Shown: one piece after another, positions 12,111 through 56,500 of the stretch
Layout of the letters: the number at the start of each line of letters is the position of its first letter
Numbering within the stretch: the first letter of the stretch is position 1
Origin: Nemertoderma westbladi
Taxonomy: Eukaryota > Animalia > Xenacoelomorpha
Reading direction: 5' to 3'
DNA: 64,000 bases
NCBI GenBank assembly: GCA_032718475.1
Contig: JAUCBJ010009104.1
Coordinates: 1-64,000, forward strand
Made by a program: the position numbers and the translations under genes
The notes under the pieces: generated by a model
The model's input: only the letters and a program-made list of their open reading frames with translations
Database searches by the model: none
What the model was told of the DNA's origin: nothing

Positions 12111-12159
12111 TATCAGGATATGAAGGCTTCTGTTGGTCGTACAGAGTTAATTTTAGGCT

Positions 12160-32733: not shown

Positions 32734-33098
32734 CAGGGATCGTACGGTAGTAAATTTTTGCGGTAGCGGTAACGGTATGGCTTTGTGGTAGCGGTATTTA
32801 CCGTGGTAGCGGTAGTTGCGGTATCAAACAATTTAGCTGGATTAATGAAGTTAGATGCTCACTTTTTGACGACTTTTTTTTAAATTGTGGCGTTTATTTT
32901 TGTTAAATTGTTTTCTTGAATTAATAAATTTTAATTTCTTTTTGTTTTTGTTGACAGAAAATACGCTACAATTCGAATCAATTTTTCATATATAATGTAT
33001 AACTGCTGTAATGATGGGTGAAGGTTATTTTGCATATTTTTCCATATTTGCATAAGGTTATTCTTGATTTTTGAAGGTATAAAAAAAGGAAACAATAT

Positions 33099-34240
33099 TG
33101 TAAAAGCTTTTGCGGATATAACAAGTAATTTTTCTCCGCAATGTACTGTGTAGGTGTTTTAGCGGACATAACAAGCCATTTTCTCCACAGTGTACCGTGT
33201 AAGTGCTTTAGCGGACATAATAAGCCATTTTCTGCCGCAATGCGCCTAATACTCTAAAAGACTGGAACTCAGATGACGAAATCTGTCAGCTGATTTACTG
33301 TCAATGTGGAACCTCTCTTTGTTCAGCTCGCTCAGCCAATCAGAGCGATTTTCATTTTATCTTGTACAGAGGCCTACGGAAAACCGCGCAATGCATTATG
33401 GTTTTTGTTTACCTTTCTGAGCCTCAGAACATCGGCTTAGAAATTCTTCTGTGCTTCTGTAGAAGTTTCAGACTTTGGCAAACATTAGATGGCTTTGATT
33501 ATAAGAACGTAAATCTATTATCAAACCTGGCAAATCACACCAAACCATACCAAACTGCATTATTTTACTTCTGTTTACTGTCTGTTATTAATTGTTATAT
33601 GTTGATGGATATGTTGTTATATTTGAAGAATACCGATAAATAATCATAAAACCCCAATCTTCTTGATTACTGAAGGTAAGATGGACCGGTTACCTGTAGC
33701 AATTGCGACTTACATTATAGTGGTTTTAGTGTGAATTAAATGCTATTTCATAATCCCTACATGTGTCAGTTACTATCCTCCTTATATATGGTCAAATTCA
33801 GTGACGGTCGGCAGATCAGTGTGCAGCAGTGTGAAGTCGTATGCAGTAGTGTGACAGATAATAAAGCATCTCCTAAAGAATGCGCTATTTACGAAAATCA
33901 GTAGCCATCTCGTTGTGTTTAGTATAAGTCATAACTCTGTTTTTATACTTAAAGCGCCACGTCCTAAAGGAACTGTTAATATTTCCCTGAAAGTGAATAA
34001 TATTGTCAGAGATTATATAGTAACGATCGATCGAATAATACCGTAGGTCTGCACCGCAATCCCTTCAAAGCATCCGAATCCAGTCTCCCTTAACTGTTGG
34101 TGAATGATCGCGCATAGACTGGCTTCGGCTAATGTTATTTCATGTGCACTAAATACTTGTCATAGGCTAAAGTCGATTTATAAACAAGAGGACACCTAAA
34201 ATTGGCAGGTTAAACTGCTAAAGGTCTGAAAGCGCGAACA
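33099..34240 (+). repeat. BEL-B 5' LTR
   Basis: Matches 49723-50864; U3 starts with ~2.5 copies of a ~48-bp repeat (33113-33243). Confidence 0.97.
33783..33865 (+). promoter_or_regulatory. Putative LTR core promoter and poly(A) signal
   Basis: TATATA at 33783, TCAGT initiator at 33816-33820, AATAAA at 33860-33865; CCAAT box near 33336. Confidence 0.55.
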
Positions 34241-35726
34241 GTAATAGATTTTAGTTTCTGATTGCACGTAGGCAATAAATTCGAATGTACCGGTCGGACG
34301 GTAACCTGTAGGCCTAACTACCTAATCACCCGAACCGGTACTTACCGGTACCAGTATTATTTCGATTGTGATATTGTATATTGGTAGGCTGTTTAAGAGA
34401 TTAGGGACTGTACACCCCTTGTTTCTTTTAGAGCTTATTTATTTCTGTCAGTTTTATTTATCTGTAAGTGTAATATTGAGCAGAAGGCGTGTAAGCCCGC
34501 TCAAATTGTACAAATAATTTGTAGGCTGGATTGTTGTCTGACTGTTGTTAAGTCTGAAGCGATTGCAGTGTGTGTAGAGTGTATGTCCGATAAAGTACTA
34601 GTTAGGAAGGTGGGGGCATCCAGTGCTGTAAGGTAAATCCCCCCCCGAAAGAATAAGTCGTACTACTCGGTTGGAACGCCTACTAACTAACCATTTCGGA
34701 GTCTGCATATACTGTAGTTTATTTAGGCTTGATAGTAGTTTGCCAGCGTTTGGTCTGTATTTTGTTTGTGTAGTCTGCACGGGTAGCGTATTTATTTATT
34801 ATTCAGAGTCTATGCGAGTATTCGCAACTTACATACCCCTAAGTTTATTCCTACAGTAATTGTGCTTGTTATACATACCGTTATAGTTAAATTAACCCCG
34901 GTACTACATCAGGGCTGCTTGGCGTAGGTAAAGACTGGTGATTTTATGCTCTAGTCACTCCAGCAGATACCATGGTTCTTTTAGCTGTACAAGTATATTT
35001 AACTGCTGGTTATTTGTTGTATAAGTACTTGTACCTAATTTAGGGTTTAGTGTACAGTACTTTCCGAGTGTGTAGGCAGTATATTTGTGTTGTAAAGTGG
35101 TTAATAAGCACGTTAGCTCTGGTTGGCTGCGGTAATTAACTTCTAGGTAACGTACATAACGTAGTACTAGCTGTAGAGCTAAAGACTTTAAGTCGTCAGA
35201 TGGTGGTATTTTCTTATCTGGACAATGCAATATATTTACTACTGCTTAATTATTTCAAATACCGTAGTATCCTGTCCGTTTGTAATAACCAGAAATTCTA
35301 ACCCCTTGTTAGGCTGGTTTGTAGATTTCCTGTAAAATTACCCTAAAATTTGTACGTGTAACTTTTGGTGTTTATTTAGAAATTGTAATCCTACACAGTA
35401 ATTGTATGTAATTTGTAGTAATAAGTAACTTAGTAAAGTAGAATTATTCGTTTTAGTATCCAACAAGTAGCACTTCACTGAGAGCGTTCAGCTTCTGTGC
35501 AGTGGCTCCTTACCCAGAAATAATAACATTTATTTCAAATATTGTCAAAACCCTTGTACGGGTACATAATATATTATAAATCAACTCAAACCGATTTATA
35601 AACTAGTAGGCCTGTTATACATCAATTAGGTGTTAATATCAGTTGGACTACTGCTTAATAACAGTAATAAAGTAAAGGAAAGTAACCCTAAAATTCAGAA
35701 ATTTAGGCATCATAAAATAATTGACA

Positions 35727-35990: not shown

Positions 35991-36123
35991 TATATTATAT
36001 ATATATCACGTTACACTGAGTAACAGTATCGGTAATTAATTACTAGGCTTATAGTTGTTACTGAATTACTAGACTTACTTTAACTGTCGTTATAGTAGTG
36101 GGCATTTAACTGTACAATCAAAC

Positions 36124-38780
36124 ATGGCTGATACAAAACAAACACTGTCAGATAGTCTCCTAGAAAGAACAGTCTGCGACTCAGATAGGAGTGCAGAACA
36201 TCTGAGACCGAAGTCCAAGTCCCCTCCTACTGTAAGAAAGGTCATCCCTCCAGTAGTAGTATCAAACCCTAGGCTAGTAAAGCACCGTAGGTCTATCATA
36301 GGCACTCAGGCTCAAGTCAAGCGGGACCAAGAGGCAGCTGTTAAACAGCAGCAATACCCGAACCGAGAACTTATTTCTCAGCGGCCCGATAGCTCCAGTA
36401 GTTCAGATACTGTAGAGTTGACACCCGAGATCGGAGCAAAGATGGCAGAAGCGGTTTATTCAGACCCACTTCTAATTCTTCCTGAAGCCGTACTCACTAG
36501 AGTATTGATTGCGGTGGAGGAACATCAAATCGATTGGGCGAGAAGTAAGCGATCGACCAAGGACAGTTATGCGGGATACACGAAGGTGGAACTGAAGTCT
36601 ATTGTCGAGATGCAATGGAACTTCCCCGGACCCGGACTCCCGTTTAACTTATCGGAAGCTGCCTGGGAGGACTTATACAGGATGGGAGTGGTAAAGGACA
36701 CTAGAGATCCAGCTGTGTGGAAGAGGTCGGCAGCAGGATATGTACAGGGATTCTTCAGCTCTTTGGAGCAATTAGAGGAACAACTGTTTCAACAACCCCA
36801 AGGACCTCAAGAGCAGGGAGAGCTGCTTTATCAAGTTCGAGAACGAATCCTAAGAATCAGACTAATCCTTTCAGCCTTTGAGGAAGCCTCGAAGAGAAGC
36901 CAAGACACGTCATTGCAAGTCGCCCTAAAGACTTGGTTCCAACGGGTGAGTCTTAAAGTCCAAGGAACAACCCAATGGAAAATTCAGCTAACTGAGCGCG
37001 CGATCCACGGAGAATCAACAGACGCTACCTTTTCTCAGGTGGAAAGCAATGTTACATCAGAGAAACCTCAGAAGAAGGACGCTATTGACATCTATCTGTC
37101 GGACTATCAACGATTTATAGGTAACAAAGAGTTGAGGAGACGGCTAGCTGGACTTCACCCTAATAGTGAGGGAGCCAAATTTGTGTTAGACTCATTAGAT
37201 GCGGAAATGTTAGCCGCGGATCAGGCTAAATTTGATGAAAGAATCCTCATCGCTAGGGAACAGGAAGAACAATTAAAGAAAAAACAGATAGAAGACAGAA
37301 AGACAGCAGCAGCGGCGGCGGCAGAAGTTGAAAGAAAGGCAGCAATGGCAGCGGCAGCGGCAGCGGCAGAAGCGGAAAGAAAAGCAGCAGAGGCAGCGTT
37401 AGAAGCTGAAAGAAAAGTGGCAGAGGCAGCGTTAGAAGCTGAAAGAAAAGTGGCAGAGGCAGCGGTAGAAGCGGAAAGAAAAGCGGCAGAGGCAGTGGCA
37501 GCAGCAGAACGGAGGGCATCTGAAGAGACCGTCGTCCCTCGTCTGCCCGCTACTATGTTGGCGGCTCCCGCTTCGGCGTTCGAGTGGGTGGATGAGAGAT
37601 GGCGGGGGATGGATCTCCTGCTCGGGCAGATGGAGGAACATCGGGAACGTTCCTCCCAACAGGTCCAGGAGTTGGAGAGGACTGTTCAACAGTTAAAAGG
37701 AACAGTAAGAGAAGGTAGGTTAGAGTTGCAAGAAGTGCAGCAGAGTATCGCGTTAGAACGCGATAAATTTGTAAATTTACAAAGGGGTATACCACCACCC
37801 CCTGTAACAATGTGTCAACCTGTCAGGTCAGAAGTATTTCATGCGCAAGGTGTGGAGCCTATACGCATCTATACTGCTAGTGAAGTAGAAACTCCTATAG
37901 TAAACCCTATTAAGGATAATTATAAACTTGTTGATAATGATATTCCATATAGACCTGATCATAATCCGAGAAATTCATATACCGATAACTCGATATTAAA
38001 TAATACGATGGCCCAAGAAAGTTTTACGCGTCAAATGTCTAGAACCTAAGCCCGTCAAGCGGTAAAGGTGGGAGAGATCGTCAAGTTCAATGGAGATGAG
38101 ATGAAATGGTTACCTTTTAATGAATATTACAAAGATAACATACATAACTCTGTACTATCTAACGGAGAGAAACTTAGATTCCTCATCGAGTGCTTGGAAG
38201 GACCTCCCAAGTTAATGGCGTTAAAGTTTATTGGACATCCAGATGGATTGCGACAAGTTTGGGATACACTAAACATCAGGTATGGTAATAGGACAAACAT
38301 AGCTAGGTATTTGTATGCGAAATTAGTAGCGCCCCGAAAGTTCCTTAGCAGCGGGATTATAGGAGTAGGTACTCGTTGGGACAAAAGAGTTCTCTATATG
38401 ATGGACCAGCAACAAAGAGACCCTACCATGGCTGATATCATGTCATTCTTAAATGGAGAGGGAAGATCACAGCTCCTAAAACAGTCCCGAGAGAAGACAC
38501 CGGAAAATAAAGTAAGTGAAAAGGAAAGGCTTCTAGGAGAAAGGTAACACCAGTGTGTTATACAGACGACGGCGAAAGCCAAACCTCTCAGGAGGAGAAC
38601 AGCGGGAAAGACACCGAAAGATCTTACTATGTCAACAAAGCACCTAAAGACGTAAATTTAAAAATAAAAGACGTAAAGAAGTAAATTTAAGTCTCGAACC
38701 AGTGACAGGAGAGAACAGGTAACAAAAACTCCTCCTACGTCTCCTAAGAGAATTCATGGAAGAAAGCCCGAGGAAAAAAC
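36124..38780 (+). pseudogene. BEL-B gag (641-aa open N-terminal part with AEAERK coiled-coil repeats; core frameshifted and partly deleted)
   Basis: ORF 36124-38049, then 38068-38547 (KFNGDEMKWLPF..KLRFLIECLEG..LNIRYG, BEL gag core). Confidence 0.85.
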
Positions 38781-38784
38781 GAGT

Positions 38785-41700
38785 GTGCACAACACTACCC
38801 AAGGTAAAGTAAGTAACATCAAACCAAAATGTGCATTGTGCGACGGGCCCCATCATTTAAGTGTGTGTGATGAATTCTTAAAGAAATCCTTAAAGGATAG
38901 ATGCGATGTCATGTGGGATAAGCGGTTGTGTTATAATTGTCTCAGACAAGGACACCAACGGCGAACCTGTTACTCCGACGCGAGGTGTGCTAACTGCGGC
39001 GCGAAACATCATATCTTGCCGCACACCGAATTTGAAAGAACCAGCCCGAGTCAGGTAAGTGAGTCCGAACTACATGTCCAATTCAGTGATGTGAATGACA
39101 CTGACCACAGTTCTGAGATGGAAGGATTTTACATGGATGAATTCTCCGATGAAAACGAATCCTGTTATATGATAAACACCGCGGTGTATCGAGCGCTTAC
39201 GTATGAGACTGAAACCGATAACGAAGCGCACCCGACTATTCCTGACCGACAACCATCTTGGAAAGCGCCAACTTCCAACGTCGGAATCCGGGAATTCCCC
39301 GTAGTTCAGCTGAGAGTCCATGGATCAGGTAAGAGTTTTATAGTCAACGCCCTCCTGGACTCCGGCAGCACAGGGACATTCATCGACAAAGAACTAGCCG
39401 AAGACATCTTTGCTGGACAACCCAAGTTCCGAACTAAGTTGAACCTTTCCGGAATTATGCAGGTTTGGAAATCTACAGCAGCTACAGACTACTATGTAGG
39501 CGCGTTGTCCACTCCCCAGGACGAACTAGGAGAACACAGCATAAGGTCAGTAAAAATGGTGGCGATAAAGAACTTTGCTACCAGCCAAGTAGAACCTTAC
39601 AACTGGGATGAAGACGATTTTACCCAGCAACATAATATCCCTAGATTCAACACCGACTACCCAGGGGTGCAAATATTGATCTTCCAAAATGCGCATGAGG
39701 CGCTTGAGACATTAGAGAAACGGCCTGCTCGACCGCAACCATTGCAAACATATGCGGGAAGAACTAGAGTAGGTTGGTACTTCACTGGACCTTCCCGTAG
39801 AACACTCATGGAAAGATTACCTACCGAACAAATACATCAGGTGAGTGAATGGGAAGAAGAAATCAGTGAGGGAGAGATCCCACCTGAGGGAACACCATAC
39901 TCCTCAGATAACGACAATATTACTCAATTATTTGACGAGGAAAATACAATCGACCTCCTCACCGAAAGTGAAGCTTGGAGAAACCAAGTGCACCTTTGCC
40001 ATCTCATCAATCATGGCGGACAACTTGACTACAACGACGAGCTAAATGAGGTGATAGATCGACACAACGCTAAGATTCGCAATGAACATGCCGTACGATT
40101 CTTTACTCAAGAAGCTGTAGAGCCTAATTCCTACGACAAAGCACTATCGGTTGAGGAGGAAAGAGCCAAGCAGATCCAGGAAACGACTACACGTTTTCTT
40201 AAAGATCAAGGTAGGTATGAGATTGGTCTGCCATTCCGACGGCGAGAACCCAACTTTATAAATAACCGACCCTTAGTGGAGAAGAGAATCGCGCAACTAC
40301 ATCGGCGTCTTACGGTCAATGCTTCAGCTAAAGAGATGTATAAGACCCAGCTGAAGAAATTCATCGATAAGGGATACGCGGAGCGAGTACCGGAAGAAAC
40401 ACCTATAACTGAGAGAATGTATTATCTAACACATCATTACGTTCCCAAACCCGGTAAACCCAACGAAGTCCGGGTAGTATTTGACGGCTCCGCCCTTTAC
40501 ATGGGCCAATCCCTTAACTCTGAGTTGTTGCCGGGACCCAACTTACTCCAATCCTTGTTGGGAATACTCTTAAGATTACGGCAATATTCGATCGCCTTCG
40601 CCTCGGATATAGAAGGCATGTTCTTACAAGTTAAGGCGCTGGATAGGGATCGAGACAGCCTACGATTTCTGTGGTGGCCTGAAGGAGACCTCAACCAAAA
40701 ACCGGTGGAGTACTGGATGACCATCCAGGCTTTCGGGATCATCTCGAGCCCCTCGAACGCTTGTTCAGTAGTGCGTACCACTGCTGATGACAACCGAGAC
40801 GCCTTCTCTAAAGCGGTTATCGACAACATCAAACGGGATATATACATGGACGACAATTTAAAGTCCCTCCCATCGGTGGAAGAAGCCATTGATGTTGCCA
40901 AGGGAACGGTAGAGTGCTTGAAACGCGGTGGATTTCGACTAACTAAATTCACAAGTAACTCCCGTGAGTTTCTGGAATCGATCCCGGTAGAAGACCGAGG
41001 AGTTAAAGATCTGGACCTAATCAAGGACGATCTTCCGGAAACCAAGACGCTTGGTTTGAAATGGGACACGGAGAGAGATATCCTGTTTTTCCAGCTAAAA
41101 CAGCGAGATAATCCAGTTCGAACTAAACGGATTTGTCTAAGTATCCTGAGCACTTATTTCGATCCATTGGGATTTATTAGCCCAGTTATATTGGTTGCTC
41201 GGAGCTTAGTGCAACAAATGTGGCTTGAAAACCACTCGTGGGACGATCCACTTAAGGGAGAACTACTAAAGAAGTGGATGAAATGGGAAGATTCTCTACC
41301 ATCCATCGAGAACTTTACGATTTCCCGTTCCTATTTTGGTCACGTTCTCCCCACGTATTCCTATCAACTCCATGTGTTTGGAGACGCCAGCGATATGGGA
41401 ATAGGTATAGTAGCCTACCTGAGGGTTGAAACTCCGGATGGAATTAAAGTTGCCTTGGTTACCTCTAAGGCCTTGATAAACAACAAGCTACGAGTTCCTC
41501 GAGCGGAGTTAAAGGCGGCTCTATACGCTACAGCCATCGGCCGGAATGTAACAGAACAGATCGACTATCCACTGGAGAAAACTGTCTATTGGACTGATGC
41601 TTTACTCGTTTTGGAGTATATAACCAATGAAGTCTGTCAGTTCAGCGTCTTCGTTACCAACAGAGTGGCCATTATACTTAGTCGCACTAATGTAGATCAA

Positions 41701-42012
41701 TGGAGACATTGCCCTGGGACGATTAATCCAGCCGACATCGCCTCCAGAGGAGCAACTCCTCAAGAACTGATAGATACTCCAGACTGGTTAGGTGGACCCG
41801 ACTTCCTAAGTAAAGAAGAAGATGAATGGCCTCCTCATCTCACCACGGCTGAGATTAGACAAGCCAAGGGAGCGGAGAAAGTCAAACCCAAAACCCGGAC
41901 GAGTAAATCGAAGTTATTTAAACCCGTGATAGATCTGTCTGTACTACACATTTCCGGAGACGACGCTGTGGATCTAAACTCCCCCGCCACAAAAATCTGT
42001 CGTGGAAATTAG
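38785..42012 (+). CDS. BEL-B polyprotein segment: Zn knuckles, aspartic protease, RT, RNase H
   Basis: CALCDGPHHLSVC, CYNCLRQGHQRRTC, CANCGAKHH; ALLDSGS; IYMDDNL; LHVFGDAS..VPRAEL..YWTD..NPADIASRG. Confidence 0.93.
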   Translation: MHNTTQGKVSNIKPKCALCDGPHHLSVCDEFLKKSLKDRCDVMWDKRLCYNCLRQGHQRRTCYSDARCANCGAKHHILPHTEFERTSPSQVSESELHVQFSDVNDTDHSSEMEGFYMDEFSDENESCYMINTAVYRALTYETETDNEAHPTIPDRQPSWKAPTSNVGIREFPVVQLRVHGSGKSFIVNALLDSGSTGTFIDKELAEDIFAGQPKFRTKLNLSGIMQVWKSTAATDYYVGALSTPQDELGEHSIRSVKMVAIKNFATSQVEPYNWDEDDFTQQHNIPRFNTDYPGVQILIFQNAHEALETLEKRPARPQPLQTYAGRTRVGWYFTGPSRRTLMERLPTEQIHQVSEWEEEISEGEIPPEGTPYSSDNDNITQLFDEENTIDLLTESEAWRNQVHLCHLINHGGQLDYNDELNEVIDRHNAKIRNEHAVRFFTQEAVEPNSYDKALSVEEERAKQIQETTTRFLKDQGRYEIGLPFRRREPNFINNRPLVEKRIAQLHRRLTVNASAKEMYKTQLKKFIDKGYAERVPEETPITERMYYLTHHYVPKPGKPNEVRVVFDGSALYMGQSLNSELLPGPNLLQSLLGILLRLRQYSIAFASDIEGMFLQVKALDRDRDSLRFLWWPEGDLNQKPVEYWMTIQAFGIISSPSNACSVVRTTADDNRDAFSKAVIDNIKRDIYMDDNLKSLPSVEEAIDVAKGTVECLKRGGFRLTKFTSNSREFLESIPVEDRGVKDLDLIKDDLPETKTLGLKWDTERDILFFQLKQRDNPVRTKRICLSILSTYFDPLGFISPVILVARSLVQQMWLENHSWDDPLKGELLKKWMKWEDSLPSIENFTISRSYFGHVLPTYSYQLHVFGDASDMGIGIVAYLRVETPDGIKVALVTSKALINNKLRVPRAELKAALYATAIGRNVTEQIDYPLEKTVYWTDALLVLEYITNEVCQFSVFVTNRVAIILSRTNVDQWRHCPGTINPADIASRGATPQELIDTPDWLGGPDFLSKEEDEWPPHLTTAEIRQAKGAEKVKPKTRTSKSKLFKPVIDLSVLHISGDDAVDLNSPATKICRGN

Positions 42013-43726
42013 AGAAAGAGACTGGAAATCTGGAACACCAGACGTCTCGCAGGGACTCTCACCTCTCCTGCAGAGAGCGATACATCACTATAGCTCCTGG
42101 AATCGGCTTTGTAAGGCCGTCGTGTATTTGAAGCGATGCTTCCATTATCACTACTCCAGGACGAAGATCGCTAGTGATACCGCTCCACTGACATCTGCGC
42201 AGGTCCATGCTATTAAAGATCTTCCCAAATACAAGATATCAGATAGGTTTCTGACGGAGAAGATCAGTTACCAGGAGCATGAAGAAACCAATAAGCAGAT
42301 ACTGAGACTCCTGCAATGCTATGAAGATTCCGATAAGTATTTCCTGTTGTTGAGAAATCCACAGATGCGCTTAAGGGATCGTTTCTCTAGCACAATGATA
42401 GATGGGTTAATACGTGTTGGAGGGAGACTAACTAATGCTCCATTATCCTTTGACACTAAGTTTCCCATACTCATTAGAAATCTTGAAATACAAATCAAGA
42501 TGATTGTAGATGTTCACAGTAAGCTGTACCATGCTGGTAGAGAACGAGTTCTTAGCGAAATTCGAACTCGCTATTATTTCCATAAACCCCGTAGAGCTCT
42601 GAACCAAGTTCTTAGGAACTGTATACCCTGTAGGAAAGCATTCAGTAGGCCTTTAACACAGCGAGAGGCAGAATTACCTAGGGAACGAGTAAGCTTCTAT
42701 GAACCACCCTTTACTAATACCGGTGTGGATTTATTTGGCCCTATTGAAGTATATCGTGCTAGGACTATAGTCAAGCGATGGTGTGTCATCTTTGTCTGTA
42801 TGACTTGTAGAGCGATCCATCTAGATATGGTGAACGATCTATCTACCAACAGCTTCATACTGAGTTTACGCCGACAGATCGCTCGCTTTGGAACTAGCAA
42901 CACGATGAGATCTGATAAGGGAACGAACGTCATTGGCGCCAATAATGAGATCAAGGCTTACGTTAGAGATTGGAACCAAAGACAGGTGGACGATCAGCTA
43001 AGGGTAACAGCATCTAGCTGGACCTTCAACGCCGCCGACGCCCCTTGGTGGGGAGGAAGTTGGGAGAGATTAATAAGAAGCGTGAAGACCGCATTTCACT
43101 TTATAGTGCCGTGCCAAGCGTATCTCACCGACGAACTTTTGCGGACGTTAATGGAAGAAATCGCCGCCTATCTTAACGAGAGACTGCTTATGCCAGTCTC
43201 ATCGATTCCCGACTCCCTGGAAGCGCTATCACCCGCGCACTTCCTACTGAAGAAACCTGTAGCCATGCTCCCACACTCGGAAATCACGGACGGAGACGAA
43301 TACTGCCGACAAACTTGGCAACATATGCAGTTATTATCCCGTCGTTTCGCTGACCATTTCGAAAAACATTATCTGCCTACGCTACAACTTCGAACCAAGT
43401 GGTTTGCGCAACAAGAAAACGTCAGTGCCGGAGACATGGTCCTTATTGTGGAATCCGATCTTCCACGTAAGCGGTGGCAAACAGGTCGTATCATCGAGAC
43501 TCATATCTCCGATGATGGTTTAGTGCGATCAGTAGAACTCGTCGTCATGCGACGTAACTTTAAGAAACCTGGAATTGTATTCGAAACGCAGCAGCTCAAT
43601 CGCCCAGTTGGTCGTTTATGTTTACTGGAAAGAGACAGAGAACTATCCGGAAACTATGGAAGGCAAGATACTCTTCCCACGACCACCTCCCTAATCCAAC
43701 AAACATCTAGGGACTCCCCAATGTAA
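42002..43726 (+). CDS. BEL-B integrase (frameshifted from upstream pol)
   Basis: HSKLYH..CIPC, GVDLFGP, SDKGTN, WGGSWERLIRSVK, and BEL C-terminal WQTGRIIE..DGLVRSV..RPVGRLCLL. Confidence 0.93.
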   Translation: MEIRERDWKSGTPDVSQGLSPLLQRAIHHYSSWNRLCKAVVYLKRCFHYHYSRTKIASDTAPLTSAQVHAIKDLPKYKISDRFLTEKISYQEHEETNKQILRLLQCYEDSDKYFLLLRNPQMRLRDRFSSTMIDGLIRVGGRLTNAPLSFDTKFPILIRNLEIQIKMIVDVHSKLYHAGRERVLSEIRTRYYFHKPRRALNQVLRNCIPCRKAFSRPLTQREAELPRERVSFYEPPFTNTGVDLFGPIEVYRARTIVKRWCVIFVCMTCRAIHLDMVNDLSTNSFILSLRRQIARFGTSNTMRSDKGTNVIGANNEIKAYVRDWNQRQVDDQLRVTASSWTFNAADAPWWGGSWERLIRSVKTAFHFIVPCQAYLTDELLRTLMEEIAAYLNERLLMPVSSIPDSLEALSPAHFLLKKPVAMLPHSEITDGDEYCRQTWQHMQLLSRRFADHFEKHYLPTLQLRTKWFAQQENVSAGDMVLIVESDLPRKRWQTGRIIETHISDDGLVRSVELVVMRRNFKKPGIVFETQQLNRPVGRLCLLERDRELSGNYGRQDTLPTTTSLIQQTSRDSPM

Positions 43727-45411
43727 CAGCGTCTGGAGTGGGTGTGTGACTATATTATTTTATATTTGTTTTTATTATTTTTATATTTATGTATGTATTA
43801 TTATGTAATTTTATTATAATCGTTTTCTTTAATTTTATTTAGTAGAATGTTATTTTAGCGATTATTTAGTAGAATTAGTGCAATATATATTCGCGTTTAT
43901 TACTTAATTACTTATATTATATATATTTAGCGTAACGGCGAGAAATAATTTTTTTTTCTCTTTCCTTACTGTCCGTATCATATTATAAATGCGTGACTAC
44001 AGTAAGATGAAATATCCATACTTATTAAAGTACAATAAAGCTCCTACTATACTCAAGTATTATTGGTAAGTAGAGTATTAGGAATGCAAAGTTCAGATCC
44101 TCGTGTCTCGGCTAAACTAAGCTCTGGGTAGACCTTGGAAACGACTTGCCTCTTCTCACTGACATTGCTTCTTGCAATATTGCTCTCATACCGTATATTA
44201 AATAATACATATAGTAGCGTGATGTCCCTTTAACAGTAGCGTATAACGCAAAATAAATCTGTTAAACCCTTTGATCATCTGTAATTCTAGTCGATTAAGA
44301 TATCATGGCACCCACCGATATACTTGAAAGACAAAACTCTAGAATCAGTGGTTAACGTCCCCAGACAAGTTCTGGAATAAATCGGTGCCCATCTTAAATA
44401 TTACATAGTTAATATTTATAAAAATCGATTAAAACAAATGTTATAATAGAGTAAATGCATACATATAAACTCTAAGGAGTTTGTAAACCAAGAAAATCTA
44501 TAAATCAAAATCTGTTAAAATTTAGATCCTTTAAAAAGACAAATTTCCTAGAATCAAGGATCCCAGTCCCCAGACATGCCCTGGAATAAAATTGTGCCTA
44601 TTTAATATTAAATAATAAAATTTACGGGAATAATTTTAAATTCATATCCTCTCATGAATTTGATAAATTGTCATTTTATGCAATTTATAACATTCCCAAA
44701 ATTCCATTAATTAATAGATCGTGGGAGCGGAGATTCACCCTATTAAGTATATTAGCGTGAGAGAATCTCCAATATATAGTCAATAGCCGATAAAATTCAT
44801 AAAATCATGTATAAAGGGGAATATTGACAATTAAAGAATTACTATTAAATAGCATCCCAGATCTGTATGCATGAGAATTACCCTAATTATACTGCTAGCT
44901 TTCCATAATGTCACCATAGCAACAACCACACTAGAATTAGAAGCGAGTTGAAAGAACAATAGAAAGCTTGCCCCATTGAATAGCATACGGAATAAATAGC
45001 GCACTGCTAGTATCCAAGGATACATAATAATAACGTGGCATTCTGGAAGGCACTTGACTAACGGACAAATGGCCTGAATGTGTACAATTTGTGACAGTTG
45101 TGTGGAATTTGTGCGTTTATAGGTGAACGATGCTACTAAAGTGTGTTTACAGTAGCTAGTCACAGTTGTGAAAGTAGCCCTACCTCTGCAGTAAGAACCT
45201 GAAGTAAATCTAAGCCCTTGGGACGGACAGTGGAGTGACTCGCGCTGGTTATTGTTGTCGTTGTATAGCTACTACGTTGGCGATAGGCACCGCGACAACA
45301 GTACATCGGTGCTGAGGATCTTGCGCTGTCCGGGGGCATTGAGGGGTAGGCAGCGACGCCCGCTAGCCTAATTACAATTAATTATAATATTTATAAACTC
45401 ATATAGCAGCT

Positions 45412-48400
45412 ATGACTGAGTTGATAGAAGATGATCTTGGTATCAGGGAGCGATATACCCTACCGTTGCAAGCGTTTGTTGATAGCCTAATACGCGGCGA
45501 CACTAGTCCAACTACTACGGAGGACGATGGCCGTTATATCGAACCGCCAATGTCCAAGGAACAACTCACGCATGAATTGGACTATAGAAAATTCATCGCT
45601 CGCTATACGCATCGTAATGGTACGTATATGGACTTCTTAACTACTGGCCATCCTATCGATTTACACGATACGGACGATGTAGACACCGAAAGGGAAATGG
45701 TTCTATTTAAATATCGTACCCAGCGGAGTCGGAACGATAAACCGAGAATCGAACACGAGAATTCTATTCGAAACCGACTCGAAAGAGAAGACGTTGAAGA
45801 CCCGGATAAACGCAGCAACTTCAACGAATATCTGGAATTCTTGAGAGAAACATATCTCAATATTGCCAGCCAACAAAATCTAGAAACTCGATATCGTCAA
45901 GGTATACATCATGACCCTATGATAGAACTCAAACGGCTCTATTTCACTATGATGTATCTTACCGCCGATCGAACGCTACCTGTCGTCCCGGATAGCTTCG
46001 AACAGATGGAGGAATATTGTAAAACTGGAGAACGATCACCCGCGTTTCCCCTACAAGACGTGCGTCATTGGTATTATTGCGATGAATGCCCTAGACCCAA
46101 CCAGCAAACGGAAAGACATAAACATCCGCGGAGACGTTGCGCTAAACACAGTTTTACTCGCTATACTTACGGGAGTTTCGAGCGAAACTTGTTCGACATA
46201 TCACCTACGTTTGCTCGACTCAAACGATCCTTAAATAAACCCATAATCAGAGTTCCGGAATACTCGGTCAGACCTCCTCATTCCCTAGTGAGACCTCAAA
46301 CTCTTGATCCTAATAGTATAACGGATCCTCCTGAACTGTACTCACTGTTCAAAGATCTTGTGTTACCCGAACAATTAATCGGTGGCACTCCGGTAGTAGG
46401 CTCGCTAGATATTCGCCCCTCCTACCTAGCCGGATTGGGATGCGGACATCTAATATCGCCGTTCAACCCGTACAATCGTTCCGGTTTAACCCCGATACAA
46501 CCCGTCACCGAAGTCGAGGAGAGCGTTGTACGAAACGCGTTAGACGCTATTCGGTAGAAGATCGGAAAAGGAACTTATGATTGTTTAGAGAAACGCAAAT
46601 TGCAGCAACAAGTCCAAGCGGTGAAGGAGTTGGCCTTACCCTAGTTTGATCAAGAAATCCAGAACCTCGAGGAAGACATCGAACTTGGACGAACCTATTC
46701 TCTACAAGAGTTCTTAGACAAATGCTTACAATGACAAGCGGAGGAAAATCAGCTCGAGGAGAAACACATCGAAATGGATGAGAGAGAAGAAGCAGCTTTA
46801 GCCCAACCAGAAGCTGAAATCCTTATGACTGATCTCTACTCCAAAACCATCATTCATCCCTCGATGGTTCCCCATTTCGGAGACAAACTCTTCGCAACAG
46901 TACAACCCCACCGGTTGATATCAACCTAAGATCTCGACATCTTATCGCTGACGCTCCTATGTTACAGCATCCGCCAATCGAGGCCGCTCGTGTCGACGGT
47001 ATACTCGTTGAACCTCCGGACAATCGAGCGGATCTTGTCCGTCGTATGGTACATGAGGTCAACATACGCGCTAGACCTTTACCGAACTCGTTTTATGGGA
47101 TCAAAGACCACCCTTATTATGTTAATCTAACTCAATATTATATGGTAAAACCGGAAGATCCTACACATAGTCTAAGGTTTCTACCACTAATAAATCCTCT
47201 CGATCTTGTCAAACTTGAACAACTGCAGAAACATCTGGATCAGTTAGTGAAAGTAAACTCATTCAGAAAACCCTACAATGTTTCCAGAATAGAGAAAGAT
47301 ATACTGCCTCCGTATAATCTCGATGGATTTATCAAAACTCGATTAGTCCACTGGAATCTCGACATATTATTCGAGGAAGAGAGAATACAACGATATGGAG
47401 ATGTAGAGACGTATACTACACAATATCTGTGTATAGGGATCTACCCAACGCTAGCGAATGCGCCACCTTATGGCATCCGGTGGGGATGACCCTAGAAAAC
47501 GCCACTAAAGAGTGGAACGAAACTCTTAACGTTATCGAAATGTATGGAGTTGTCACTTACGTTAAAGAAGGTAGCGTTCCGGTTGGAGAACTGGGAACTA
47601 CGCGCATGATACATATATGAGGATTAGCTGGTTCTAGCCACGTGTGTACTCGAGCGTGTTCCGACGTGATTGATTATTCTTTTGAGACCCTCACCGAGAT
47701 ACAAAAGAAACTCCGACATGGACAATTCGAACTCGCGCAGCGTTACGTCACCGACACCGAGCGCAAACCGGCCATGGGTATCGATGGATCGATGTTACCC
47801 CAGCCCGTGCTCGAGATGTTGTTTAACGAAAGAATCCTTAAAATCGGCTCAGCTGTTTATGGAGATCTCCAAAACGACTTTAGGAACATGGAGAATATCC
47901 CATATCCTTTCGTAGATACCCAGCTGATTGCTCCCTGGGCAGAAGGCCGAGGTTTCTTCCGAACTATGTATGCCAATACACCCAGCGGCATCAATAAAGT
48001 ACAACGAACCTCCATCGGACATCTTGCCTTCCAAGAGTACGGATGGAATTTCAAAGTCGGAAACCCTATCAACTATCAACAAGTATATGGAGATCATTAT
48101 TCTCGATTATACTTCGACGGACCATTGACCGCACCTGGCGTTGTGTATAGCTTCATGAGTGTTCCACTTCGTCCCTCATTAGCTATATACACTATATTCG
48201 AGAACGCCGCACTTGCCGGTTGGCTAGCCGATGTGTGCAGTCATACTATACGCGCCCATCCCTTAATACTTGGAACCAAACTCGCCAAGCTAGATGAACA
48301 CAATAAATTCATCCGCTTCGAATGCTTTAGGCGCTTTCTGACTCCATTCCGTAACATTGATAGTCAGTTCAAGGACCGCGCCCTGACCAAGCTCAGCCTA

Positions 48401-49696
48401 AGAGACTCAGCTGCTGAGAAGTTAGACAGTGCTGGATTCGCCATTTTCAAGGACATTTGTATACAGAACTTACATTCCTCTGTTATACAAAGACCTCGAA
48501 TCCCCATGGGTTATTCTATCGTGGAAGTTCAGACACTGGGTTCGCTTGAGGAGACAGCCACACCTACCTCAGCTATACAATTGGAAGACGAACCAATATG
48601 CTTAGAATCCGAGGAGATTCAGCCCATAGCGCCCCGGAGCAGTGACAACGATTACGTCCTGGAATGGTATCAAGGTCCACAATGTCTCACCGCGTACGAT
48701 TATCGGCATGCCAATTATGTCTCTAGGAAACGTTGCCGATTATGCGCATCTCGAGACCATTTCACCCCTGTGGACTCCAACGTACCCTGCTCCTACTTCC
48801 ATGAACAGCCTACGATGGAGATCTATTGTGTGTATTGTAGATTCAATAACTTGCACATTTTCGCAGTCTGCCCCCAATTTATGACTCAATGTCATCATTG
48901 TCAGTTTAAAGGACATGCAAGTTTTGATTGCCCTTTCAACCGCGATCTGGAAAGTGTAGATGAAACGATTACCCTACGCTACATCCGAGCCTGGGAAGCG
49001 AACGCGGATTTACATTGTGAGTCACGTCATCGCTATTACCCTGGACATGCCTACGAAGGAGTTTATGCATTCCACCCGTATCTATTCGCGTCCATTGAAC
49101 AAAAATCTCGCACACCGAGTTACGAACTAATGAAGCGTGTTGGCGAGAATATTTCGACCAAATTTGTTCGTAAATATCTCAGGAACATTAATCCCAACGA
49201 TCTTAATTCCTCTAACTTGATCAACTTCATCCGTCAAGATCCGGAATATGGTGACTTGTTCATCAACTCGCATCCAGAACTACAGGAAGTTCATAGACGA
49301 CCCTATGAATATAGAGCCCAAGAACGCGAGTTAGAAAGAACCATCGAACCGAGGAAATTTCTCACTACTCACGGTCCACCTACCGCTCTCGTGCAGACGA
49401 CTCGTCAGAGACCAGTAAGAGCTGCTGTCCTGAAACGTGCTCTGAAGGTTGTTCGACCTCGCTCCACTGAGGTTGATATCGATCAACCGGGTACCTCGAC
49501 CGGCGGATACACCGACCGTAATCCTAAACCTTCCGATGCAATTGTATTGAACCCTTCACCCAGGAGTTATAGCCCTCCTAGTAAAGTGGCTCGCCCCAAA
49601 GAGAAAAAAAACTGCGTAAACGCCGTTCGCGTAAGAAAGACTAACTGTTTAGAGTATTTTTATATTTTAGAAACTGTGATTTTTTATATTTTATAG
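45412..49696 (+). pseudogene. BEL-B accessory ORF3 (~1,400 codons, a few stops/frameshifts): Cys/His motif, DEDDy-like 3'-5' exonuclease domain, Zn-knuckle cluster
   Basis: ORF 45412-46557 continues through in-frame stops to ~46860; then 46959-47489, 47429-47620 and same-frame 47642-49696. Motifs VVTYVKE, LPQPVLEMLFNERILKIGSAVYGDL, FVDTQLIA, SIGHLA, YTIFE; CRLC...H, CVYC....H....C, CHHC...GH....C. Confidence 0.75.
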
Positions 49697-49714
49697 AATT
49701 AAATCCCATTTTCT

Positions 49715-49722
49715 GGGAGCGG
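49715..49722 (+). promoter_or_regulatory. Polypurine tract of BEL-B (GGGAGCGG)
   Basis: Abuts TG of the 3' LTR. Confidence 0.8.
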
Positions 49723-50864
49723 TGTAAAAGCTTTTGCGGATATAACAAGTAATTTTTCTCCGCAATGTACTGTGTAGGTGTTTTAGCGTACATAACAAGC
49801 CATTTTCTCCGCAGTGTACCGTGTAAGTGCTTTAGCGGACATAATAAGCCATTTTCTGCCGCAATGCACCTAATACTCTAAAAGACTGGAACTCAGATGA
49901 CGAAATCTGTCAGCTGATTTACTGTCAACGTGGAACCTCTCTTTGTTCAGCTCGCTCAGCCAATCACAGCGATTTTCATTTTATCTTGTACAGAGGCCTA
50001 TGGAAAACCGCGCAATGCATTATGGTTTTTGTTTACCTTTCTGAGCCTCAGAACATCGGCTTAGAAATTCTTCTGTGCTTCTGTAGAAGTTTCAGACTTT
50101 GGCAAACATTAGACGGCTTTGATTATAAGAACGTAAATCTATTATCAAACCTGGCAAATCACACCAAACCATACCAAACTGCATTATTTTACTTCTGTTT
50201 ACTGTCTGTTATTAATTGTTATATGTTGATGGATATGTTGTTATATTTGGAGAATACCGATAAATAATCATAAAACCCCAATCTTCTTGATTACTGAAGG
50301 TAAGAGGGACCGGTTACCTGTAGCAATTGCGACTTACATTATAGTGGTTTTAGTGTGAATTAAATGCTATTTCATAATCCCTACATGTGTCAGTTGCTAT
50401 CCTCCTTATATATGGTCAAATTCAGTGATGGTCGGCAGATCAGTGTGCAGCAGTGTGAAGTCGTATGCAGTAGTGTGACAGATAATAAAGCATCTCCTAA
50501 AGAATGCGCTATTTACGAAAATCAGTAGCCATCTCGTTGTGTTTAGTATAAGTCATAACTCTGTTTTTATACTTAAAGCGCCACGTCCTAAAGGAACTGT
50601 TAATATTTCCCCGAAAGTGAATAATATTGTCAGAGATTATATAGTAACGATCAATCGAATAATACCGTAGGTCTGCACCGCAATCCCTTCAAAGCATCCG
50701 AATCCAGTCTCCCTTAACTGTGGGTGAATGATCGCGCATAGACTGGCTTTGGCTAATGTTATTTCATGTGCACTAAATACTTGTCATAGGCTAAAGTCGA
50801 TTTATAAACAAGAGGACACCTAAAATTGGCAGGTTAAACTGCTTAATTTCTGAAAGCGCGAACA
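49723..50864 (+). repeat. BEL-B 3' LTR
   Basis: Matches the 5' LTR; followed by TSD AATAT. Confidence 0.97.
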
Positions 50865-51347
50865 AATATGATATGAATGTGATTTTAAAAAAATGCGATA
50901 TGATACGAAAATGTTTTGTAATTTTTTCGTATCATAAAAAATTTATATATTATTAATTTCATAGTTATACGAAATCAGGATTATTATTTTAGAAAATTAT
51001 TTGACGATTTCAAATGATTTGACTATAAGTATTGCTGCTGTTTCAGTCTGTTATGACATATGAATGATTGATATGAACTTCAACTTAATTTAGGAACACA
51101 GTTTACAGTAAGAGTTTTAATTCTTAGGTACTTATTTTTCAATTATCAAATTAACATAAATTCAATGGGCTGGCAGAAACAGCACCCCAATTGGAAATTT
51201 GCCTATGGTAAATAGAAAAAACTAAAAACCAACTACCGCAAATACCGCAGTAGTTGGCATTTGCGCAAGCGGTAGAGGTAGCGGTAGTAAAAAGCTCGGT
51301 ATTTGCAGTAGCGGTATCGGTAGCACCGTACGATCCCTGGATGTCAG

Positions 51348-53508: not shown

Positions 53509-56500
53509 CAGTGCCGGATTATGCCTCTGGTGGCCCTAATGCATATTTTAGTAATCTCCAAAAATGGCCCGAAAATTGATCTTTTTCCGCAAACCCTTTC
53601 AAAAGAAAAAGTTGCTAAAAAACTGTGAAAATGTTGCGAAGGAAAAATAGTATTTTCATTGGATGACTGCGTGCAAATAAGTACTAAGTACTTTAATGAT
53701 AAGTACTTTGCAAAAATAGTTTTCATCAGGAATTGTAACATTACTAAACGGCATTATATTTTGCCTATAAACCCTTTGCTATAAAAAGTGTAATGGTTTT
53801 GGTAGAATTTCTCACGCTTTAATTTTTAATATATTAATGGGACCATTGCCCCAAATATCTATTTGTTTTATTTATAAAGCTACTATTCTGAAATGTTAAC
53901 ACAATGATCTGTGTTCTTTTATATACGAGAAAGGCATTTCCTAAAGGAAATGCAACCACGAAGCTAAGGAAAATTAAACAAACGGCCACACTTTGGTTCG
54001 TTGCTTAGCCTCGTTTAGTAGCAATTGTCAATAATTAACTTCTATTCCCATGGAAACTAGAGTTCTCTGGAACTGTTGCTTTAACCTTTGAAAAAAAATT
54101 CAGTACAGATTGTGGTTCAGATAACACATATACTGAGTTTCAGAAAATATTGTAGTTTATGTCCAGATTACCGATTTTCTATCAAATTGCATCTGTTTGC
54201 AGTGGTTGTCATGGAAACTGAAAAATAGAACAATGTAATTCGGATGCAGAATAAGTCATATTGTGGGGGTAGGGGTTAGTCCCAAGTCATAATACTATTA
54301 ACTTGTGCTTCAAATTATCATTTTATAAATTTTAACATCTGTTTAGACTTGTTGCTATGGTAACTGTATTTTCTAATTAACCTCAAACGGCTTGGATATG
54401 GATCTTATAGATGAGTTGCAAAACCCCAAGTTTATATATATTACAGTTTTGCTACAAATAGAGTTATCAATATAGATTTGAATGATATAGAGTTTAATAA
54501 ACTACAGTTACCATGGTAAGTAAATTTCTGGAATAATTTAAGTTTCACTAAAAGTTCCAACTCGTGGTCCAGATAACACATACCCAGTTTTGTAAAATTT
54601 TATCGTGAAGTCTATGTCCAAATGAATAAGTTTTGAATAAAAACATCTGTTTTCAGCGGTTGTCATGGTAACTGAAAAATAGAACAATGTAATTCGGATG
54701 CAGAATAAGTTATATAGTGAGGGTGGGGTTGGTCCCAAGTCATAACACCTTGCCCTTAGGCCTCAAATTAACATTTTATAAATTTTAACATCTGTTTAGC
54801 CTGGTTGCCAAGGTAACTGGATTTTCTATTTAACCTAAATCGGCTCTGCTATGGACCTTATAGTTGAGTTGAGAAACCCCAAGTTTATATGTATTATAGT
54901 TTTCCTACAAATAGAGTTACAAATCTTGACTTGAAATACATAGACTTTTTTCTAAGTCCGTTGTCATGGAAACCAGATTTTTCCTGGATATAAGACCCAT
55001 TCCACACGACGCGCCTTGATGAGTACAGTAGTATATACATGCAAACTGATGAGTACAGTAGTATATACATGCAAAATTTCAGGGTACTTTTAAAGGCTAT
55101 TTTTTTCTGGAATTAAAAAACACTAAATCTGCTCCATACAAGTAAAATAGCCCACTATGAATAGACCATCTCAGCTAAGGAAAATCTTTCTTAGCGAAAG
55201 TAGTTGATTTTCCTTAGCTTCGTGGATATACTGAGTTTCAGAAAAAATTGTAGTTTATGTCCAAATTACCGATTTTCTATCAAAATGCATCTGTTTTCAG
55301 CGGTTGTCATGGTAACTGAAAAATAGAACAATGTAATTCGGATGCAGAATAAGTTATATAGTGGGGGTAGGGGTTGGTCCCAAGTCATAACACCTTGCCC
55401 TTAGGCTTCAAATTAACATTTTATAAATTTTAACATCTGTTTATCCCGGTTGCCAAGGTAACTGGATTTTCTATTTAGCCTCAATCGGATCTGCTATGGA
55501 CCTTATAGTTGTGTTGCGAAACCCCAAGTTTATATCTATTATAGTTTTCCTACAAATAGAGTTATAAATATTGACTTGAAATACATAGACTTTTTTTGAA
55601 GTCCGTTGCCATGGAAACCAGATTTTTCCTGGATATGAGACCCGGCCCAAAAGATGCGCATCGACGAGTAGTACATACATGCAAAAATTCAGGGTACTTT
55701 TAAAGGCTAGTTTTTTCGCCTATCAAAAAACCCCAAATCTGCTCCATACAAGTAAAATAGCCCACTATGAATAGACCATCTCAGCTAAGGAAAATCTTTC
55801 ATAGCGAAAGTAGTTGATTTTCCTTAGCTTCGTGGATATATTACAGTTTTGCTAGAAATAGAGTTACTAGAAAGGCATTTCCTAAAGGAAATGCAACCAC
55901 GAAGCTAAGGAAAATTAAACAAACGGCCACAATTTGGTTCGTTGCTTAGCCTAGTTTAGTAGCATTTGCCAATAAATAACTTCTATTCCCATGGAAACTA
56001 GAGTTCTCTGGAACTGTTGGTTTTACCTTTGAAAAAAGATTCAGTCCAGATTGTTTTTCAGATAACACATCGAGTTTCAGAAAATATTGTAGTTTATGTC
56101 CAAATTACAGATTTTCTATCAAAATGCATCTGTTTGCAGTGGTTGTCATGGAAACTGAAAAATAGAACAATGTAATTCGGATGCAGAATAAGTCATATAG
56201 TGGGGGTAGGTGTTGGTCCCAAGTCATAATACTATTAAATTGTGCTTCAAATTATCATTTTATTAATTTTAACATCTGTTTACTCTTGTTGCTATGGTAA
56301 ATGGATTTTCTAATTAACTTCGAACGGCTTGTATATGGACCTTATAGATGAGTTGCAAAACCCCAAGTTTATATATATTACAGTTTTTCTCCAAATAGAG
56401 TTATGATTATAGACTTGAATGATATATAACTTTAAAAAAACTACAGTTACCATGGTAACTAGATATTTCTGGAATGTTTTGAGTTTCACTAAAAGTTCCA

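Follow-up and report, generated by a model that had tools for sequence, protein, structure and literature searches.

The window, a 64-kb stretch of the Nemertoderma westbladi genome, holds a retrovirus-like element of 17,766 bp (≈ 17.8 kb, positions 33099–50864), whose two LTRs, with TGT...ACA ends, differ by 18 mismatches in 1,142 bp without gaps (98.4% identity). Its gag-pol region comprises a coiled-coil-like Ala/Glu repeat, DUF1759, three knuckles, a protease, a reverse transcriptase with YMDD, RNase H/Peptidase_A17, an integrase and DUF5641, and is damaged by a stop at 38047, a break at ≈ 38400–38680 and a frameshift near 42000. The BEL/Pao context proposed for this locus by an earlier, sequence-only reading is confirmed by the LTR pair with TG...CA ends, the target-site duplication, the gag-PR-RT-RH-IN order and Pfam matches in gag-pol (DUF1759, E 7e-9; Peptidase_A17, 8e-37; Integrase_H2C2, 6e-8; DUF5641, 1e-20). 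The genome sizes described for Belpaoviridae are 4.2–10 kb, well short of the present one, and the typical primer site is 18 nt long and matches the 3′ end of tRNA-Arg or tRNA-Gly (PMC8742986), whereas the copy in the window has no TGG-type tRNA primer site after the 5′ LTR, the first TGG standing only at +142 in a copy that has possibly decayed. No tRNA gene was found in the window. Judged by its proteins the element is thus BEL/Pao-type, atypical in size and primer site, a filing that rests on its domain families.

Table 1. Features of the element and of its third gene, in window coordinates
Feature	Position	Strand	Basis
Left target-site duplication AATAT	33094..33098	+	direct reading of flank
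5′ LTR, 1,142 bp, TGT...ACA	33099..34240	+	LTR-pair alignment
10-nt LTR segment complementary to bases just 3′ of the 5′ LTR, candidate self-primer	33511..33520	+	shuffle test
Primer-site position, without TGG-type tRNA site	34241..34251	+	direct reading
BEL/Pao-type gag-pol	36124..43726	+	Pfam matches and direct reading
Spacer, 1.7 kb, non-coding	43727..45411	+	stop counts, direct reading
ORF3, ≈ 1,430 codons	45412..49696	+	ATG 45412, stop 49694–49696, frame stop counts
N-terminal half of ORF3, ≈ 690 aa, one CX2CX11HX4C-type motif at 46078–46140	45412..47485	+	motif reading
DEDDy-like (EXD2/RNase D class) 3′–5′ exonuclease domain, putative	47540..48230	+	motifs, homologues, profile/fold searches
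Exo I	47561–47569	+	motif alignment
Exo II Asp	47864	+	motif alignment
Exo III Tyr, Glu	48188, 48200	+	motif alignment
Three Cys/His zinc knuckles: CX2CX4HX9C, CX2CX5HX4C, CX2CX4HX4C	48734..48931	+	common to P0002, P0004
Purine-rich tract GGGAGCGG adjoining 3′ LTR	49715..49722	+	direct reading
3′ LTR, 1,142 bp	49723..50864	+	LTR-pair alignment
Right target-site duplication AATAT	50865..50869	+	direct reading of flank

A third gene, ORF3 (4.3 kb), occupies the env position. The spacer before it holds a GC-rich hairpin (≈ 45215–45350) and, just upstream of the ORF3 ATG, an acceptor-like CTAAT...CAG, and has no match in Rfam; at its other end ORF3 stops 26 nt short of the 3′ LTR, with the purine tract in between, and it has no introns. 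In the window copy the gene is spread over three frames, with stops at 46555, 46642, 46732, and 47618 and two single-base frameshifts. It is not a chance reading frame, because the stop counts of the frames differ widely in its three pieces (3/29/29, 0/10/9, and 1/34/46) in comparison with the spacer (40/39/52). Contigs of other copies came from four runs, X1 to X4, which represent at most three samples from three studies; the long contigs of X4 each contain one base more than the window in 46293–47021 and another in 47115–47482, so that in other copies ORF3 fits one continuous frame of about 1,430 codons, in agreement with the unbroken ORF of ≈ 1,400 codons envisaged earlier between integrase and 3′ LTR. 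A reading as two ORFs joined by stop-start overlap (ATG 47486 overlapping the stop of the upstream frame) was rejected, as contigs from elsewhere in the family have the additional base within 47115–47482. The gene was also rightly judged not to be env-like: a simple hydropathy test of the three pieces gave no signal peptide or transmembrane helix (19-residue maximum 1.19; acidic N-terminus). Its N-terminal half has no notable Pfam, NCBIfam, or PDB match, and the CxxC..H..C motif noted there earlier at ≈ 46075–46150 was located. The second BEL/Pao element of the window contains no ORF3-like sequence.

The remainder of ORF3 combines a DEDDy-like exonuclease segment with three zinc knuckles, as had been noticed by eye, and this layout recurs in natural homologues. 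A phmmer search of 1.84 billion proteins returned three matches, one of which (P0003) was discarded as a low-complexity repeat match; the other two, the metagenomic proteins P0002 (648 aa) and P0004 (575 aa, cluster of five), from ENA metagenome contigs of 3–11.5 kb, are matched in both the nuclease and the knuckle regions (E 2.5e-7 and 7.6e-4). Both share with ORF3 the nuclease motifs and their spacing, the three knuckles and then a conserved segment, but lack the long N-terminal half. An HMM built from these two proteins alone gives the window domain 53.7 bits, against at most 8.8 among 2,000 shuffles. The spacing of the three Exo motifs is identical in all three proteins, the window protein having 29 residues inserted after Exo I that are absent from P0002 and P0004, and the residues common to the three, which are only 25–30% identical, coincide with the Exo motifs. 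Word-seeded searches of proteins did not turn up any relative of the window ORF, an alignment search of one length class returned only P0002 itself, and scans of viral contigs, metagenome contigs, and prokaryotic genomes gave pattern matches and no confirmed locus. Among the knuckles only the third is a canonical CX2CX4HX4C; a pair of them resembles retroviral nucleocapsid (E 0.003–0.005), and they are not detectably nearer to the knuckles of the element's own Gag (E 0.07).

Exo I opens with valine in the window copy, suspected earlier of being a single change away from aspartate; the residue is acidic in essentially all depth in 4/4 runs, making the valine private to this copy, and P0002 and P0004 both have D-x-E. 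Exo II reads K-[ILV]-G-S-x4-D in the three proteins, with the aspartate aligned to that of EXD2. Exo III is Y-x3-E (YTIFE) in the window family and P0002 and Y-x3-D in P0004, so the site had been correctly placed but is not a decayed Y-x3-D, since Y-x3-E is kept family-wide; of the D-x-E/D/Y-x3-D pattern proposed as a check on intact copies, the acidic start of Exo I was found, but Exo III ends in Glu, not Asp. The set is best described as a D-E-D-E variant, expected to work like DEDDy, rather than a canonical Y-x3-D enzyme. The option of a pseudo-nuclease loses ground because acidic residues are retained at all four positions in the family, and intact copies are probably catalytically active.

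Profile, embedding, and fold searches all placed EXD2/RNase D-type DEDDy exonucleases first, each weakly, and EXD2 is the nearest solved relative in three of them; no single search passed formal significance for the class. NCBIfam RNase D matches the window protein itself at E 0.012. The PDB profile search ranks EXD2 (E 0.11) and RNase D (E 1.3) as its top two, with Exo II and Exo III falling in order on EXD2, while single-sequence PDB searches gave nothing meaningful. In Pfam, PF01612 was not found in the window protein and matched P0002 only at E 0.037–0.2, the best score (14.3 bits, P0002 domain) lying below the gathering score of 23.6. In the ESM Atlas the top three matches are PF01612 proteins (0.81), a score range also reached by a third of shuffled proteins; an Atlas cluster, mostly from Euglenozoa, also joins PF01612 to zf-CCHC (0.86 to P0002). 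The window domain alone gave a single-sequence AlphaFold model of pLDDT 30. In the better half of the P0002 model (pLDDT 47), three strands stand between two helices; with this model, Foldseek returned EXD2 chains in the top nine rows (E 4e-3 to 2e-2, probability 0.91–0.99), followed by EXD1, RNase D, Nibbler, and Egalitarian interspersed with integrases, with no match at E ≤ 0.001, and VIA ranked EXD2 first (Z 5.4, 80 residues, rmsd 4.0). The top four rows from a viral library are giant-virus exonuclease or RNase H-like proteins. We consider it very probable that the nuclease segment belongs to the DEDD-type fold class.

ORF3 belongs to the family as a whole. Contigs at 80–100% identity on 42500–50000 number 51,062, 31,925, 15,687, and 590 in X1 to X4, and those of each run cover 30/30 bins of the interval and ORF3 from end to end, which disposes of the worry that the gene might be a one-off nested insertion. 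Within 47480–48330, the best-supported 40 of 173 variants, which are not a random draw, include 30 third-position differences (binomial p 8e-8) and divide into 29 synonymous, 9 non-synonymous, and 2 at a stop codon, with pN/pS ≈ 0.10–0.14; in the same set, Exo III codons 236–239 have synonymous differences only, four in a row. Because of this excess of third-position and synonymous differences, the nuclease part is, on the codon evidence, under purifying selection. Some contigs have joints that skip the nuclease, from 45780 to 48583 in 1/4 runs and from 46772 to 49313 in 2/4; these show deleted derivatives, which would fit an ORF3 product acting in trans.

Juno and Vesta, LTR retrotransposons of bdelloid rotifers, are Gypsy-type elements. 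Together with the Athena/Terminon elements of these animals they carry a separate ORF downstream of pol that encodes a predicted RNase D-like 3′–5′ exonuclease (PMC5408684, PMC6431247, PMC5718144), comparable to the present ORF3 in its env position, its own reading frame, and its lack of a transmembrane domain. The rotifer elements are not BEL/Pao, are low-copy and have the motif DEED, whereas the window family is D-E-D-E, very high-copy and under purifying selection; likewise, the available part of PMC5408684 describes neither a triple knuckle nor a 690-aa N-terminal region, both of which are present here. EXD2 (exonuclease domain, PDB 6k17), RNase D (1yt3), and trypanosome RNase D (7c42) head the profile and fold matches below formal significance, but are cellular genes with ≈ 16% identity and Asp in place of the Exo III Glu. 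Belpaoviridae share the Gag/Pol domain families and their order, the TG...CA LTRs, the 5-bp duplication, and a third ORF before the 3′ LTR, yet their described third genes are env-like fusogens, unlike the nuclease-like gene of the window (PMC8742986, PMC3118150, PMC13524379). The word “exonuclease” has 0 occurrences in the main text of the latter two, and no BEL/Pao exonuclease was found in the open-access literature searched. The arrangement known from rotifers would likely extend to BEL/Pao elements, and moves into a very high-copy family, in which the catalytic motifs show signs of purifying selection; a nuclease-plus-triple-knuckle module is also defined, whose natural unbroken homologues P0002 and P0004 are open to direct assay.

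The reading we favor, although we would put it at somewhat less than an even chance, is that ORF3 is a selected accessory gene of this high-copy BEL/Pao-type family, encoding a soluble, active 3′–5′ exoribonuclease of the EXD2/RNase D class. Expressed from its own mRNA, presumably spliced or internally promoted, the protein would grip single-stranded RNA with its three knuckles, trim 3′ ends, and so blunt, in trans, the host small-RNA silencing of the element. The piRNA pathway involves EXD1 (PMC4712191), and innate signaling is suppressed by an arenavirus exonuclease (PMC7968707). Among the possible roles, action on small RNAs or their precursors is the likeliest, and one that we propose with reserve. 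Element-encoded counters to small-RNA silencing in animals have, to our knowledge, seldom been described.

Against this stand readings that dispute the fold, the gene, or its task. That the segment is not DEDD-fold at all and its motif likeness coincidental would agree with the want of a significant Pfam, PDB, or Foldseek match and with two low-confidence models, but is scarcely believable when the same class comes first in several differently built searches and the conserved residues of three distant proteins sit on the Exo motifs. ORF3 could also be another mobile unit or a captured host gene riding passively: a purine tract and then TGTGTG, possibly a relic LTR start, follow the pol stop directly, the homologues P0002 and P0004 have no counterpart of the N-terminal half, and none of the contigs listed spans from pol to ORF3. 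We regard this as very improbable, because spacer plus ORF3 has no terminal repeats or second target-site duplication around it, ORF3 abuts the 3′ LTR across the purine tract without introns, and purifying selection among many diverged copies is unexpected of a passive passenger; an ancient capture from another element may be compatible with all of this. An RNA-binding adaptor in the manner of EXD1 or Egalitarian, forming part of a large protein for the export, transport, or protection of the element's genomic RNA, with catalysis incidental or lost, seems to us unlikely. EXD1, a DEDD protein without activity, binds RNA (PMC4712191), Egalitarian is among the profile and fold matches, half of ORF3 has no family match, a structured hairpin lies upstream, the last acidic residue is Glu instead of Asp, and the accessory protein CERV of Cer1 offers a precedent for export (PMC10309623). 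EXD1, however, has lost its acidic residues, whereas the window family and both homologues keep all four plus the tyrosine, at matching spacing.

Still rather unlikely, in our estimation, is a nuclease that serves replication, either shaping a reverse-transcription primer by trimming an RNA 3′ end as far as a duplex, with the element's own transcript or a tRNA fragment as the source, or polishing cDNA or RNA ends in the particle. It would account for the missing TGG-type site, despite the tRNA-Arg/Gly site of the ICTV profile (PMC8742986), and for the nucleocapsid-like knuckle pair, and bases +2 to +11 after the 5′ LTR are the exact complement of LTR 33511–33520, in an orientation that would put the primer 3′ end at the LTR edge. 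That complement was spotted after the fact, and such a match occurs in 32/3,000 shuffled LTRs, or in 123/3,000 when it may start anywhere in the first 30 nt; moreover, a TATA-like box just 12 nt upstream of the segment would place a conventional start past it. Tf1 makes its primer by RNase H with no additional nuclease required, and replication proceeds without a gene of this kind in most BEL/Pao elements, which also speaks against the replication reading. Tf1/Sushi elements are described as self-priming, and the same is predicted of some plant elements (PMC6317226). In its furthest form, tRNA priming would have been dropped and the RNA self-folded, the ORF3 exonuclease, held on its knuckles, trimming the cut 5′ fragment to the duplex as primer; we think this a long shot, and equally so the idea that the nuclease-knuckle module recurs widely among retroelements as a cassette, as yet undescribed, by which RNA cleavage leads to priming. 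If true, self-priming would give BEL/Pao elements a priming route new to them.

The copy in the window is dead and decaying. ORF3 makes up 36% of the coding length and contains 4 of the 5 in-frame stops (p 0.06), for which reason its decay may have begun earlier than the insertion of this copy.

The extra ORF lying between integrase and the 3′ LTR of the BEL/Pao-type element, here called ORF3, is a real, selected, non-env accessory gene that joins a DEDDy-like nuclease to three zinc knuckles. The element is unusually long, and the known range of BEL/Pao elements points to an animal as its host; it has LTRs of 1,142 bp each that start with TGT, end with ACA and differ at 18 positions in a gap-free pairwise comparison. 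With AATAT duplicated on both flanks and the gag-pol domain set, this LTR pair bears out the BEL/Pao context proposed in the sequence-only reading. Gag-pol is also damaged (about three breaks), and a 33-bp repeat at 37300–37520 encodes a helical repeat rich in Ala and Glu, within a long extension at the N-terminus of Gag. The first bases past the 5′ LTR, GTAAT, resemble a splice donor. Directly after the pol stop, at 43733–43746, the purine tract GGAGTGGG is followed by TGTGTG, possibly the relic of an older LTR start predating the gain of ORF3.

Coding features of the window and the element that carries ORF3
Feature	Position	Strand	Remarks
Complete LTR element	33099–50864	+	17,766 bp
gag-pol	36124–43726	+	DUF1759, Peptidase_A17, Integrase_H2C2, DUF5641 (Pfam): BEL/Pao set
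ORF3	ATG 45412 to 49696	+	1.7-kb spacer separates it from pol; ends 26 nt short of the 3′ LTR
LINE-type endonuclease ORF	1924–3285	−	Exo_endo_phos, E 1e-11
ORF next after the endonuclease ORF	703–1638	−	

In the window copy, ORF3 is interrupted by stops at 46555, 46642, 46732 and 47618 and by two frame changes; each piece has one frame nearly free of stops and two that are stop-rich. Its hydropathy never exceeds 1.19 over 19-residue windows, so it is not env-like, as had been read for a broken frame at this place. A repeat search around ORF3 found no bracketing terminal repeats. An acceptor-like CTAAT...CAG precedes its ATG, and the hairpin upstream is stable (z −2.96 for 45150–45420, a region picked by eye; 0/200 shuffles). 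This long GC-rich hairpin (45215–45350), just upstream of ORF3, has no Rfam match and could be a signal for translation, export or packaging.

Contigs of four of the six sequencing runs on record, from at most three samples and in one case possibly from the same source as the window, aligned to 42500–50000 at 80–100% identity (51,062, 31,925, 15,687 and 590 contigs). All 30 of 30 bins were covered in each run, so ORF3 is not a one-off nested insertion; joints bypassing the nuclease are present in some runs. Three long contigs of run X4 have one base more than the window, over 46293–47021, 47021–47547 and 47115–47674, respectively, the last being gap-free against it over 47483–47674. Because both frame changes require a +1 offset, other copies likely carry one continuous ORF of about 1,430 codons. 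Among the best 40 of 1,659 differences, the stops at 46642 and 47618 differ from nearly all depth; those at 46555 and 46732 are not in this set. Just inside the 3′ LTR, at 49733–49737, the aligned contigs carry on in several different sequences, which suggests that this end of ORF3 adjoins LTRs of more than one type.

Selection is seen in the nuclease region: the 40 best-supported of 173 differences, not a random draw, comprise 29 synonymous, nine non-synonymous and two in a stop codon, with 30 at third positions. Since the synonymous share expected under neutrality is only 0.23–0.30, pN/pS is about 0.10–0.14 for these 40. Elsewhere in ORF3, 29 further listed differences divide into 17 synonymous, 11 non-synonymous and one at a stop. 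The window copy itself is simply decaying, as its six near-fixed non-synonymous or stop differences fit the approximately seven private changes that half the LTR divergence predicts for 851 bp.

No relative of ORF3 came up in Pfam, in single-sequence PDB searches or in word-seeded protein searches, and looking up the protein by sequence brought no look-alike. A phmmer search of its C-terminal 736 residues against 1.84 billion proteins gave three matches, of which P0003 was rejected as a repeat artefact. The ENA metagenome proteins P0002 (E 2.5e-7) and P0004 (E 7.6e-4) align with the nuclease region and also with the three knuckles read after it. The window domain reaches 53.7 bits against an HMM built from the nuclease parts of these two, versus at most 8.8 among the listed 1,009 of 2,000 shuffles, and all three share, with identical spacing, [ILV][ST][IY]-x-x-E, K-[ILV]-G-S-x4-D-x3-D-F and P-L-x6-Y-x3-[DE]. 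At Exo I, both proteins have D-x-E and the window copy has Val, a private change, as suspected, since essentially all depth in 4/4 runs has an acidic residue there. Exo III is Y-x3-E in ORF3 and P0002 and Y-x3-D in P0004; the Glu is maintained, since codons 236–239 vary only synonymously. The pair of knuckles is similar to retroviral nucleocapsid (E 0.003–0.005), and comparison with the element's own Gag knuckles showed no detectable likeness. P0002 and P0004–P0008 are nuclease-plus-triple-knuckle proteins from ENA metagenome contigs of 3–11.5 kb, several of which (9.4–11.5 kb) would fit whole retroelements.

The window domain very probably belongs to the DEDDy-like EXD2/RNase D fold class, on the concordance of individually weak results: NCBIfam RNase D on the window protein (E 0.012), PF01612 on P0002 (E 0.037), EXD2 (E 0.11) and RNase D (E 1.3) leading the three PDB profile matches, and hhalign to RNase D (75%). 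In ESM Atlas, the window domain (0.81) and P0002 (0.86) both point to PF01612, as leads only. The P0002 model (pLDDT 47 overall, 57–76 across residues 1–80) ranks EXD2 first in Foldseek (E 4e-3) and VIA (Z 5.4; unrelated rows within 1), and giant-virus exonucleases first in a viral library; the searches are not fully independent, because sequence also enters Foldseek. Modelled alone, the window domain did not yield a confident fold. The N-terminal 690 aa gave no noteworthy match in Pfam, NCBIfam or PDB searches.

By analogy, we rank first a putative role in countering the host's small-RNA silencing, because the DEDD class includes piRNA-pathway proteins (EXD1; Nibbler is among the fold matches), an RNA-virus exonuclease suppresses host defence (PMC7968707), ORF3 is separate from pol and deletable in cis, and the family reaches a very high copy number. 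ORF3 would probably be translated from its own mRNA, and the knuckles would anchor the nuclease on single-stranded RNA. An active two-metal enzyme is favoured because the four acids and Tyr are kept in the ORF3 family, whereas EXD1 has lost its catalytic acids (PMC4712191).

The main rival, that the nuclease acts in reverse-transcription priming, draws on the lack of a TGG-type primer site after the 5′ LTR (34241–34251), where positions +2 to +11 are perfectly complementary to LTR 33511–33520 in primer orientation. Pairing of 34241–34251 with 33511–33521 is exact over 10 nt, or 11 counting a G-U pair, in self-priming orientation, and such a complement occurs in 32/3,000 shuffled LTRs (123/3,000 under a looser rule). 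However, this test was post hoc, and a TATA-like box just 12 nt upstream of 33511–33520 speaks against transcription of the segment. As a third option, ORF3 might be an RNA adaptor for export or transport, by analogy with CERV, the accessory export protein of Cer1 (PMC10309623).

The concept of an accessory DEDDy gene is already known from rotifers: PMC5408684, PMC6431247, PMC6338049 and PMC5718144 describe DEDDy ORF3s, functionally untested there, in the bdelloid LTR elements Juno and Vesta and in Athena/Terminons. These have a DEED motif, whereas the present family has D-E-D-E. The word “exonuclease” was not found in the available main text of PMC3118150, PMC12440569 and PMC13524379, and no BEL/Pao exonuclease case came up in the paper searches. 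As far as searched, the novelty lies in the BEL/Pao superfamily, the element's size, the D-E-D-E motif, a knuckle module that has natural homologues, and the evidence of selection.

The window also contains another BEL/Pao element (~8250–30600; Peptidase_A17 at 24618–26480), which is more decayed and has nothing resembling ORF3. Its repeats, 8252–9547 and 28895–30215, are 94% alike; three tandem 4,052-bp units (9390–21215, >99% alike) lie upstream of gag, and an N run ends near 21318. The GC-rich region 4650–8055 contains tandem repeats of 42 bp and 30 bp, and on its minus strand are long open frames (5314–7224) that have no Pfam match and may be ORF1 of the LINE-type element. At 53900–57700 lies a degenerate tandem array with units of ~450–650 bp, 75–95% alike.
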